The notes under the pieces were generated by a model. It saw only the letters and a program-made list of their open reading frames with translations. It did not search any database and was not told the DNA's origin. A stretch of 4,042 nucleotides of DNA from a virus. Its lineage: Duplodnaviria > Heunggongvirae > Uroviricota > Caudoviricetes. The stretch lies in the IMG/VR virus record IMGVR_UViG_2541047498_000022, positions 1 to 4,042 of that record; one strand, written 5' to 3'. The translations under genes were made by a program, and so were the position numbers. Positions 1,845 to 3,250 of this stretch are shown one piece after another; within the stretch, counting starts at the first letter, position 1; each line of letters begins with the position of its first letter.

Positions 1845-2207
1845 ATGCTGAAACAGCAGGATATGACAGAAACCGCCAGAGTTGTGTTTGATGAATTAAG
1901 CGTCACCGAACCGGCGACGGTCGGGGAGATTGCGCAGAATACGTACCTTTCACGCGAGCGCTGCCAGTTAATACTGACCCAGCTGGTTATGCGGGTCTGG
2001 CAGACTATCAGTTCGGTTGTTACAGACGCCTTCAGTCCTGAAGGCTTTTTTATTTGTGGTAAATGGGCGGCTGGTGGGTGTAAGGGGCACCCACCAGCCA
2101 TCTGCTCATGCGTTGGGTTCACAAGCAAACCTCAGGCCCACTGCTTTGCGCAAAAGCAGAATGAGCCTATCAGAGACAGGCTTAATGATCCATGCTTAAT
2201 ACTGTAA
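1845..2207 (+). CDS. Hypothetical small protein, possible N-terminal helix-turn-helix; 3' extent doubtful
   Basis: ATG at 1845 with an AAGGG Shine-Dalgarno-like motif 9 nt upstream. The N-terminal ~60 aa (…TVGEIAQNTYLSRERCQLILTQLVMR…) look like a helix-turn-helix fold. The same frame reads through a canonical intrinsic terminator (2028-2055) and a 12-bp perfect inverted repeat (2069-2099) before stopping at 2205-2207, 16 nt inside the methyltransferase ORF. The Cys-rich C-terminal half may be non-coding read-through. Confidence 0.35.
   Translation: MLKQQDMTETARVVFDELSVTEPATVGEIAQNTYLSRERCQLILTQLVMRVWQTISSVVTDAFSPEGFFICGKWAAGGCKGHPPAICSCVGFTSKPQAHCFAQKQNEPIRDRLNDPCLIL
2028..2055 (+). terminator. 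Canonical rho-independent terminator (GCCTTCA-GTCC-TGAAGGC + TTTTTTATTT)
   Basis: 7-bp perfect stem at 2028-2034 / 2039-2045 with a 4-nt loop, immediately followed by a T6 run (2046-2051) and ATTT. It lies inside the annotated small ORF. Confidence 0.55.
2069..2099. repeat. 12-bp perfect inverted repeat (GGCTGGTGGGTG / CACCCACCAGCC, 7-nt spacer) with a Chi octamer in each arm
   Basis: Read directly: the left arm 2069-2080 is the exact reverse complement of the right arm 2088-2099. GCTGGTGG (Chi) is at 2070-2077 on + and its complement CCACCAGC at 2091-2098. There is no T-run after it, so it is not a terminator. Confidence 0.9.
2141..2159. promoter_or_regulatory. Near-perfect palindrome CTGCTTTGCGCAAAAGCAG about 35 bp upstream of the methyltransferase start; candidate operator
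   Basis: CTGCTTT (2141-2147) and AAAGCAG (2153-2159) are reverse complements around a GCGCA centre; the core TTTGCGCAAA is itself palindromic, with one extra A. Position and symmetry suggest a dimeric DNA-binding site. Confidence 0.35.
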
Positions 2208-3250
2208 AAATATCCAGTTGTGAGTTAATCAACGCCGACTGCCTGGAATTTATGCGGTCGTTACCCGAAAATTCTGTTGACCTGATAGTCACGGACCCGC
2301 CGTACTTCAAAGTGAAACCCGAGGGCTGGGATAACCAGTGGGCGGGTGATGAAGATTACCTGAAGTGGCTGGACCAGTGTCTTGCGCAGTTCTGGCGGGT
2401 GCTGAAACCTGCCGGAAGTCTTTACCTGTTCTGTGGCCATCGTCTGGCATCTGACACCGAAATCATGATGCGTGAGCGGTTTAACGTGCTGAACCATATC
2501 ATCTGGGCAAAGCCGTCCGGACGCTGGAACGGGTGCAACAAGGAAAGCCTGCGGGCGTATTTCCCCGCCACAGAGCGCATTCTGTTCGCAGAGCATTATC
2601 AGGGGCCGTATCGTCCGAAAGATGCCGGGTATGAGGCGAAGGGTAGGACACTGAAACAGCATGTGATGGCCCCGCTGATTGCTTACTTTCGTGATGCGCG
2701 CGCTGTCCTGGGGATAACGGCAAAACAGATTGCAGATGCCACAGGAAAGAAAAACATGGTGTCGCACTGGTTCAGTGCCGGTCAGTGGCAGCTGCCGAAC
2801 GAAAGCGATTATCTGAAATTACAGGCACTGTTTGCCCGGGTGGCAGAAGAGAAGCATCAGCGGGGTGAACTGGAAAAGCCCCACCACCAGCTGGTGGATA
2901 CGTATGCCTCTCTGAACCGACAGTATGCGGAGCTGCAGAGTGAATATAAGCATCTGCGGCGGTATTTCGGTGTGACGGTGCAGGTGCCGTACACCGATGT
3001 GTGGACGTATAAACCGGTGCAGTACTATCCAGGGAAACATCCGTGCGAAAAACCGGCAGAAATGTTGCAGCAGATAATCAGCGCAAGCAGTCGTCCGGGA
3101 GACCTGGTTGCAGATTTCTTCATGGGGTCGGGGTCGACAGTGAAAGCAGCGATGGCGCTGGGACGTCGTGCAACTGGCGTTGAACTGGAGACTGAACGTT
3201 TTGAGCAGACGGTGCGGGAAGTACAGGATTTAATCATTCGTAACGGATGA
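2192..3250 (+). CDS. DNA methyltransferase, beta-class amino-MTase (motif IV DPPY before motif I FxGxG), probably N6-adenine-specific; no restriction partner in the window
   Basis: 352-aa ORF. The N-terminus has the typical catalytic block ...SVDLIVTDPPY (DPPY at nt 2294-2305). The AdoMet-binding motif DFFMGSGST is near the C-terminus (nt ~3113-3139). That order (IV then I) defines the beta class; DPPY rather than SPPY favours adenine. A long ~270-aa insert between the motifs presumably holds the target-recognition region. No endonuclease ORF is adjacent. The start is ATG 2192, with a weak Shine-Dalgarno AGG at 2178-2180. Confidence 0.85.
   Translation: MLNTVKISSCELINADCLEFMRSLPENSVDLIVTDPPYFKVKPEGWDNQWAGDEDYLKWLDQCLAQFWRVLKPAGSLYLFCGHRLASDTEIMMRERFNVLNHIIWAKPSGRWNGCNKESLRAYFPATERILFAEHYQGPYRPKDAGYEAKGRTLKQHVMAPLIAYFRDARAVLGITAKQIADATGKKNMVSHWFSAGQWQLPNESDYLKLQALFARVAEEKHQRGELEKPHHQLVDTYASLNRQYAELQSEYKHLRRYFGVTVQVPYTDVWTYKPVQYYPGKHPCEKPAEMLQQIISASSRPGDLVADFFMGSGSTVKAAMALGRRATGVELETERFEQTVREVQDLIIRNG
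2884..2897. repeat. 14-bp perfect palindrome CCACCAGCTGGTGG inside the methyltransferase CDS; overlapping Chi octamers on both strands
   Basis: Read directly: CCACCAGC (2884-2891) overlaps GCTGGTGG (2890-2897). It encodes His-His-Gln-Leu-Val-Asp in the methyltransferase frame and contains a CAGCTG core. Confidence 0.9.

Follow-up and report, generated by a model that had tools for sequence, protein, structure and literature searches.

The 4,042-nucleotide window analysed here, meaning the whole stretch of DNA under study, corresponds to the late-regulatory part of a lambdoid prophage and carries a methyltransferase gene. In our preferred reading, which we hold at a probability of roughly 0.8, the product is a beta-class N6-adenine methyltransferase of the M.EcoGII family, prophage-borne and solitary, which would methylate without sequence specificity, would be made from the late transcript that depends on Q and would counter restriction. 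The gene, the family, its lack of specificity and its recognition domain of helix-turn-helix (HTH) type have been published already, M.EcoGII is sold as a commercial reagent, and sequence comparison identifies the window gene as a known member of this family and an ordinary prophage gene. The features on which the argument draws are collected in Table 1.

Table 1. Features of the methyltransferase locus, in window coordinates.
Feature	Position (nt)	Strand	Residues (aa)	Basis or remark
RusA gene, 3′ end	window 5′ end			Holliday-junction resolvase, not a restriction enzyme
Antiterminator Q gene	208..588	+		Pfam PF06530 Phage_antitermQ, E 8.7e-52
CPBP/Rce1-like membrane protease gene	about 740-1558			AT-rich
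Terminator-like hairpin and U-run	1700..1721	+		Scan; 5 bp, z -1.1, weak here; upstream of the methyltransferase unit
Small ORF	1845-2207		120 aa	Frameshifted copy of a 65-aa ORF; overlaps methylase start
Second terminator-like hairpin and U-run	2028..2051	+		Scan; fold -10.5 kcal/mol, z -3.6
Methyltransferase coding sequence	2192..3250	+	352 aa	ATG to TGA; identical to WP_000935548.1; ORF list, Pfam, DNA identity
Motif IV DPPY, catalytic	2294..2305	+	35-38	Regular expression on the translation
Target-recognition domain	2624..2860	+	145-223	Helical bundle with Cro/C1-type HTH
HTH proper	2720-2773	+	177-194	
Charged linker and heptad-periodic helix	2861..2968	+	224-259	Ends in conserved LRRxF; returns the chain to the Rossmann core
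Motif I FMGSG, AdoMet binding	3119..3133	+	310-314	Sole F.G.G match in the translation
tRNA, anticodon CAT	3291-3366	+		ARAGORN, Rfam
tRNA, anticodon TCG	3374-3450	+		ARAGORN, Rfam
tRNA, anticodon TCT	3464-3540	+		ARAGORN, Rfam
Terminator-like hairpin after the tRNAs	3555-3580	+		Scan and fold
nanS-p-like esterase gene	starts 4030			

Enzyme class and relation to M.EcoGII

The methyltransferase reading frame is a real gene far beyond chance, because it matches both the Pfam family PF01555 N6_N4_Mtase (aa 29-340; E 2.4e-43; 149 bits, the cut-off being 26.7) and the PADLOC Type II methyltransferase model MTase_II (E 1e-161). The frame, its DPPY motif and its C-terminal FxGxG motif lie where the preliminary description had placed them, and the interval between the two motifs, put there at about 270 residues, counts 271. 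Across 49 homologues D35, P36, P37 and Y38 are invariant, as are F310, G312 and S313, with G314 nearly so, and the FMGSG stretch aligns with the AdoMet block of beta-class methyltransferases in the PDB. Sequence matches to PDB entries cover the N- and C-terminal blocks at E values of 1e-24 to 1e-14, and M.RsrI, M.MboIIA, CcrM, M.PvuII and the structures 8urk and 9c3u have the same Rossmann core and motif order. Homology to these enzymes predicts a Rossmann core split between aa 1-~135, with DPPY, and aa ~260-352, with FxGxG, which would bind AdoMet and methylate a flipped-out adenine.

With DPPY at the N-terminal end, the recognition domain in the centre and FxGxG at the C-terminal end, the protein has the beta-class order. 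By comparison with its relatives the enzyme is a beta-class amino-methyltransferase, and the close characterised relative yields N6-methyladenine; the PF01555 match, the motif order and the product of this near-identical protein (PMC5778455) all agree with the earlier assignment to the beta class, probably as an N6-adenine enzyme. An orphan GATC methyltransferase of the Dam-type alpha class was rejected as a candidate because its motif order is the opposite, with FxGxG N-terminal and DPPY C-terminal, and beta-class enzymes give the best matches in NCBIfam, PDB and PADLOC.

The exact protein, WP_000935548.1, occurs on at least 999 contigs, mostly from E. coli O157:H7. At the DNA level a cassette of 1174 bp (2116-3289) matches, with 100% identity, a gene that many complete O157:H7 genomes annotate as ‘DNA-methyltransferase’. 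The closest characterised relative that we compared is M.EcoGII, to which 325 of 348 aligned residues are identical (93.4%). The M.EcoGII sequence was taken from the supplement of the SUPREM paper (Suppl. Table S1, PMC11551740), the printed copy of which contains machine-reading errors, including in a stretch that is invariant across all natural homologues; the figure of 93.4% is therefore a lower bound, and the true identity is probably ~94-95%. Homologues form more than 3000 clusters across Enterobacterales, nearly all of 348-352 aa among the matches listed.

M.EcoGII (EGT69837.1) and M.EcoGI, both from E. coli O104:H4 C227-11 (Murray et al. 2018, PMC5778455), resemble the window protein in their beta-class order, length (~350 aa), HTH domain and charged linker, and are likewise borne on lambdoid prophages with no endonuclease. 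There are also differences: relative to M.EcoGII there are about 20 substitutions, the C-terminus of the window protein is 3 aa longer (...LIIRNG against ...LIV), and the window gene follows a different Q gene and the CPBP protease gene. NCBI names WP_000935548.1 a ‘site-specific DNA-methyltransferase’, a generic name from annotation pipelines that is probably wrong for the M.EcoGII family.

The central insert and predicted specificity

The preliminary description had called the insert between the motifs unusually long. This is true against minimal beta-class enzymes, in that 154 aa lie between the conserved blocks here and 58 aa in 9c3u, the best PDB match, but it does not hold within the family, in which ~348-352 aa is the standard length among the homologues listed. 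The Pfam match spans 312 residues for 219 model positions. The crystallised beta-class enzymes, which are site-specific and mostly belong to restriction-modification systems or cell-cycle control, have a middle region ~80-100 aa shorter that cannot be aligned with the insert.

Pfam searches with the insert alone (aa 135-265 and aa 155-238) returned sub-threshold matches only, to HTH_3 (E 0.23), Pou (E 0.16) and ZapB (E 0.018), and the linker region gave weak coiled-coil matches. The HTH could thus not be called by sequence profiles, and a structure model was needed. A full-length AlphaFold 2 model based on 49 close homologues was of only moderate quality, with a pLDDT of 67.9 that fell below 50 at aa 99-137 and 254-286; the insert was therefore modelled apart, from a more diverse alignment, and the full-length model was kept out of the fold search. 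Searching 1.84 billion representatives with the insert only gave 110 matches. The full-length proteins among them measure 315-397 aa, and most have DPPY near aa 18-61 and FxGxG near aa 279-351; as far as these sequence matches go, the insert domain is specific to the DPPY...FxGxG architecture.

The model of aa 140-262 from the diverse insert alignment reached a pLDDT of 85.3 and a pTM of 0.75, with helices at aa 145-173, 177-184, 190-194, 204-223 and 238-255. The stretch LGITAKQIADATGKKNMVSHWF (aa 173-194, nt 2708-2773), earlier noted as HTH-like, falls in a predicted HTH bundle in this model, with the HTH at aa 177-194. In the same alignment R256 and F259, in the linker, are invariant, and the linker aligns to (EYEDLRR)n repeats, variable in number, in distant homologues. 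Within the HTH domain H192, Q198 and W199 are the most conserved positions and are invariant even at ~30% identity.

A central helical recognition domain with an HTH, followed by a charged helical linker, is what characterizes the M.EcoGII family, and both elements are present in the window protein; an HTH-containing recognition domain and charged linker were described earlier for M.EcoGII itself (PMC11551740). The insert is not unusual, since every part of it belongs to the recognition domain and linker that are normal for this family. Mechanistically, the central domain (aa ~145-223) would form a lambda-repressor-like HTH bundle that would hold nucleic acid without reading its bases.

The preliminary description had also said that the target site was not evident from the sequence. 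That statement is superseded, since ~93-95% identity to M.EcoGII leads us to expect no target site at all, the enzyme probably methylating adenine in essentially any context. M.EcoGII is a characterised prophage enzyme of 349 aa that methylates adenine in any sequence context (PMC5778455). An improbable alternative is that the window enzyme is a sequence-specific orphan m6A methyltransferase, the substitutions that separate it from M.EcoGII having created a defined recognition motif, as the preliminary description tacitly supposed; in a smaller variant of this idea, those in the recognition domain could give the allele a sequence preference. About half of the differing residues do fall within the linker or the recognition domain (V172, G197, A212, D236, A239, S240, Q244, A246, Q249 and H254), in partial clustering at aa 172-254. 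M.PflMI and other site-specific enzymes are reported to share the overall predicted fold (PMC11551740), and the NCBI name, generic as it is, points the same way. Against a defined motif, M.EcoGI, with 16 of its 349 positions changed relative to M.EcoGII, was found to be non-specific too (PMC5778455), and a table of O111 STEC methylases lists homologues at 92-93% similarity as ‘nonspecific’, the lysogen methylomes showing no motif that could be assigned to them (PMC6602927). The invariance of H192, Q198 and W199 in homologues only ~30% identical makes these residues unlikely specificity determinants, and the charged linker, said to mark non-specific members, is present here.

Genomic setting and predicted late expression

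No restriction endonuclease was found in the window, nor within 6-7 kb at related annotated loci (L001-L014), in agreement with the earlier remark that none is adjacent. With no endonuclease in the window or at these loci, the gene is not part of a Type II restriction-modification system. Its prophage location is evident from lambdoid late neighbours, namely RusA, Q, tRNAs, esterase and holin. The 120-aa ORF that overlaps the methylase start was ruled out as a partner gene, as it is a copy of the 65-aa ORF with a 1-nt deletion.

The same gene occupies the same slot, between Q and the tRNA/stx genes, in Stx2a-converting phages, phage 1720a-02, phiP27 and SfV, with protein identity of 94.6% to Stx2_EH2201 and 81% to SfV. 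Over window positions 1666-4042, DNA identity to related phages is ~91-92%, 1720a-02 being at 92%. In an Stx2a-converting phage the gene order runs Q, 65-aa ORF, DNA methylase, three tRNAs, stx2A, stx2B, nanS-p and holin. The window shares with the phages that have the gene in this slot the succession of small ORF, methyltransferase and three tRNAs; it differs in having no stx after the tRNAs, the nanS-p-like esterase gene following directly. The methyltransferase gene is always placed directly upstream of the three phage tRNAs, and also of stx in toxin phages, and is probably co-transcribed with the tRNAs. In a 933W-type Stx2 phage all that is left of the methylase between Q and the tRNAs is a C-terminal piece of 50 aa. 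A ‘helix-turn-helix domain-containing protein’ in the methylase slot of an O157 prophage otherwise 99.5-99.9% identical to the window was considered as a degraded methylase and rejected; it belongs to the AraC family of regulators and resembles YdeO and GadX.

The window itself is a mosaic. Its flanks (1-2115 and 3290-4042) match this O157:H7 prophage, with the AraC-family regulator gene in the methylase slot, at 99.5-99.9% identity, and its middle part (2116-3289) matches the methylase cassette of another O157:H7 prophage at 100%; the left crossover falls somewhere from about 2015 to 2083, in sequence common to both prophages. Of 5,426 complete E. coli genomes, none matched 80% or more of the window at a single location, and all sampled contigs with the exact protein place it in another context, downstream of a different Q gene. 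Hence the window must be a chimera of the assembly or else a rare recombinant that arose between co-resident prophages, and the reading of the gene is the same in both cases.

The expression of the gene was assessed from its surroundings. A consensus scan of the + strand from 1056 to the methyltransferase start codon returned no promoter-like site. At the position of the first hairpin upstream (1700-1721), two related loci have different stems that still pair and are then followed by U-runs, which suggests that the hairpin, though weak in the window, is a conserved element. The second (2028-2051) stands just past the small ORF in its intact, 65-aa version and is identical in 4 of 4 aligned loci. 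In Stx phages, transcripts started at pR′ run across the equivalent region and on into stx2. From the lack of a promoter-like site of its own, the Q gene and two hairpins upstream, and the location of the gene after Q/pR′ and ahead of the tRNA-stx-lysis genes of lambdoid phages, we infer late, Q-dependent expression: the methyltransferase and tRNAs would belong to the Q-dependent late transcript, the gene would be silent in the lysogen, and after induction Q would let late transcription through both hairpins. On this context, the methyltransferase is most likely switched on only in that transcript, hypermethylating phage DNA against restriction.

The predicted silence in the lysogen has a counterpart in M.EcoGII, which is not expressed there and which is toxic and slows growth when over-expressed (PMC5778455). 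The preliminary description had offered, besides phage protection, that the enzyme might methylate the host epigenetically. Such a regulator would be expressed in the lysogen and alter gene expression by methylating the chromosome, much as other phage-borne methylases, M.EcoGIII for example, change host transcription according to work cited in PMC6602927. We consider this highly improbable here: published SMRT methylomes of lysogens with close homologues lack such methylation, the homologues being silent (PMC5778455, PMC6602927), forced expression of M.EcoGII is deleterious (PMC5778455), and the window gene lacks its own promoter-like site and is preceded by terminator-like hairpins.

The gene could instead be a dead passenger, an intact ORF in a defective or cryptic prophage, never usefully expressed and with no current role. 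The prophage may indeed be defective, given the frameshifted small ORF upstream, and the gene might then never be expressed. Many O157 lambdoid prophages are degraded, with several neighbour genes annotated as frameshifted at one related locus (L003), and M.EcoGII itself was described as lying unexpressed on a ‘cryptic prophage’ (PMC5778455). Yet the ORF is full-length with all catalytic and AdoMet motif residues intact, its exact sequence is as widespread as reported above, and the family is held at ~350 aa across Enterobacterales. This pattern points to a working enzyme under purifying selection, and we regard a dead passenger as unlikely.

Proposed methylation of phage DNA and escape from restriction

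The preferred reading, that of a non-specific, late-expressed M.EcoGII-family enzyme, carries a role that has been proposed before. M.EcoGII was suggested to be switched on at prophage excision, to overcome restriction, and its family is very large in E. coli prophages, a very similar gene being present in phage 1720a-02 (PMC5778455). The protection of the phage after induction that the preliminary description envisaged is thus in keeping with the literature on this family. Applied to the window gene, replicating phage DNA would become heavily m6A-modified, and heavy m6A on packaged DNA would blunt many Type I, II and III restriction systems with adenine in their sites, while silence in the lysogen would spare the host chromosome toxic methylation.

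The same logic is found in phage Mu Mom and other modification functions confined to induction, which stay off in the lysogen, do harm when wrongly expressed and are turned on late to give phage DNA broad protection (PMC12707154); Mom and the window enzyme are unrelated in protein and chemistry.

The activity of M.EcoGII covers RNA as well as DNA (PMC5778455). Because M.EcoGII methylates RNA in vitro and the window gene adjoins tRNAs, it is conceivable that in-vivo substrates include RNA, such as the phage tRNAs and late mRNAs, which would make the enzyme an epitranscriptomic factor instead of, or besides, an anti-restriction DNA methylase. We judge this very unlikely.

In the literature searched we found no direct proof that such virions carry hypermethylated DNA or gain protection by it, and no O157 methylome that names the gene. 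Direct evidence on virion DNA hypermethylation and restriction protection is thin in lambdoid and Stx phages, and for both questions the common O157:H7 allele is a convenient test case.

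Composition of the window

Comparison with related annotated O157:H7 prophage loci showed that the window is a mosaic of two such prophages. The flanks (window 1-2115 and 3290-4042) are 99.5-99.9% identical to a single prophage locus, L001, and the methylase cassette between them (2116-3289) is 100% identical to a different one, L003. We placed the left crossover at ~2015-2083, inside sequence common to both loci, and the right crossover where the first tRNA gene begins. No contiguous copy of the window occurs in the 5,426 complete genomes of E. coli compared, and the sampled contigs that encode the exact methylase protein carry it in the other context (47 of 47). 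The origin of the window is either a rare recombination between prophages or an assembly chimera.

Features in and around the methylase region
Feature	Location	Strand	Remarks
CPBP/Rce1-like ('Abi'-type) membrane protease gene	window 740-1558 (and 589-739)		directly after Q, before first terminator-like hairpin
120-aa ORF (frameshift artefact)	window 1845-2207		overlaps methylase start
Linker after HTH domain	window 2861-2968, aa 224-259		heptad-periodic: VDTYASL NRQYAEL QSEYKHL RRYF
sRNA family STnc100 match	window 3617-3807	+	Rfam, 138 bits versus gathering score 47, E 1.6e-31
Terminator-like hairpin	window 3777-3796	+	after STnc100 match
Terminator-like hairpin	window 3836-3815	-	after STnc100 match
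AraC-family regulator gene, 237 aa	L001:8179-8892		slot equivalent to window 2116-3289
Methylase remnant, annotated 'DNA modification methylase'	L015:2462-2614		933W-type Stx2 phage, between Q and tRNAs

Genes on either side of the methylase

The protease gene that follows the antiterminator gene Q has a GC content of 0.32-0.40, versus 0.50-0.56 in the remaining window; promoter-like sites were seen at 649-721. The protease gene has the look of a moron that could be expressed in the lysogen; PADLOC returned zero matches for the protease. The 120-aa ORF is a frameshift artefact of a disrupted 65-aa ORF. A 1-nt deletion near 1992, also present in L001, breaks this 65-aa ORF, which matches phrog_331, is annotated elsewhere as TrmB-like, and is undamaged in L003 and in Stx2a phages.

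Downstream, the tRNA trio in window 3291-4042 is of the kind typical of Stx phages; ARAGORN assigns its first member (anticodon CAT) to Met, but the RefSeq annotation gives tRNA-Ile. Stx2a phages carry stx2AB between the tRNAs and a nanS-p-like esterase gene, whereas the window lacks stx2AB at this position, and no stx genes follow the trio in the window (to 4042). The interval between the trio and the nanS-p-like SASA esterase gene, which starts at 4030, holds the STnc100 match, rated strong.

A linker of variable length among methylase homologues

In distant homologues (P0171, P0174, P0188, P0210, P0216, P0227 and P0233), the linker consists of ~1-6 near-perfect EYEDLRR-type repeats, variable in copy number, followed by a conserved LRRPF. 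The linker is a coiled-coil-like spacer of variable length, which might determine spacing or take part in dimerisation. Two relatives of the methylase are odd: P0016 (386 aa) has an internal duplication of ~34 aa around YKHLRRYF...GKHPC, and in P0127 (402 aa) methylase residues 1-~280 are fused with PF02413, a tail-fibre-assembly domain. The contigs that encode them are short, and each protein is probably the product of a rearrangement or an artefact of assembly.

Cargo between Q and the tRNAs

In 933W-type Stx2 phages, only the C-terminal 37-50 aa of the methylase are left, at 76-84% identity (phage matches listed: H73-H77 and H84-H87). The remnant of the type seen in L015 is a deletion scar, the gene having been lost from the 933W-type lineage. 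L001, otherwise near-identical to the window, has in the methylase slot an AraC-family regulator that is unrelated to the methylase and similar to YdeO (E 9e-30) and to GadX (E 4e-25). This makes the Q-to-tRNA interval a swappable cargo slot.
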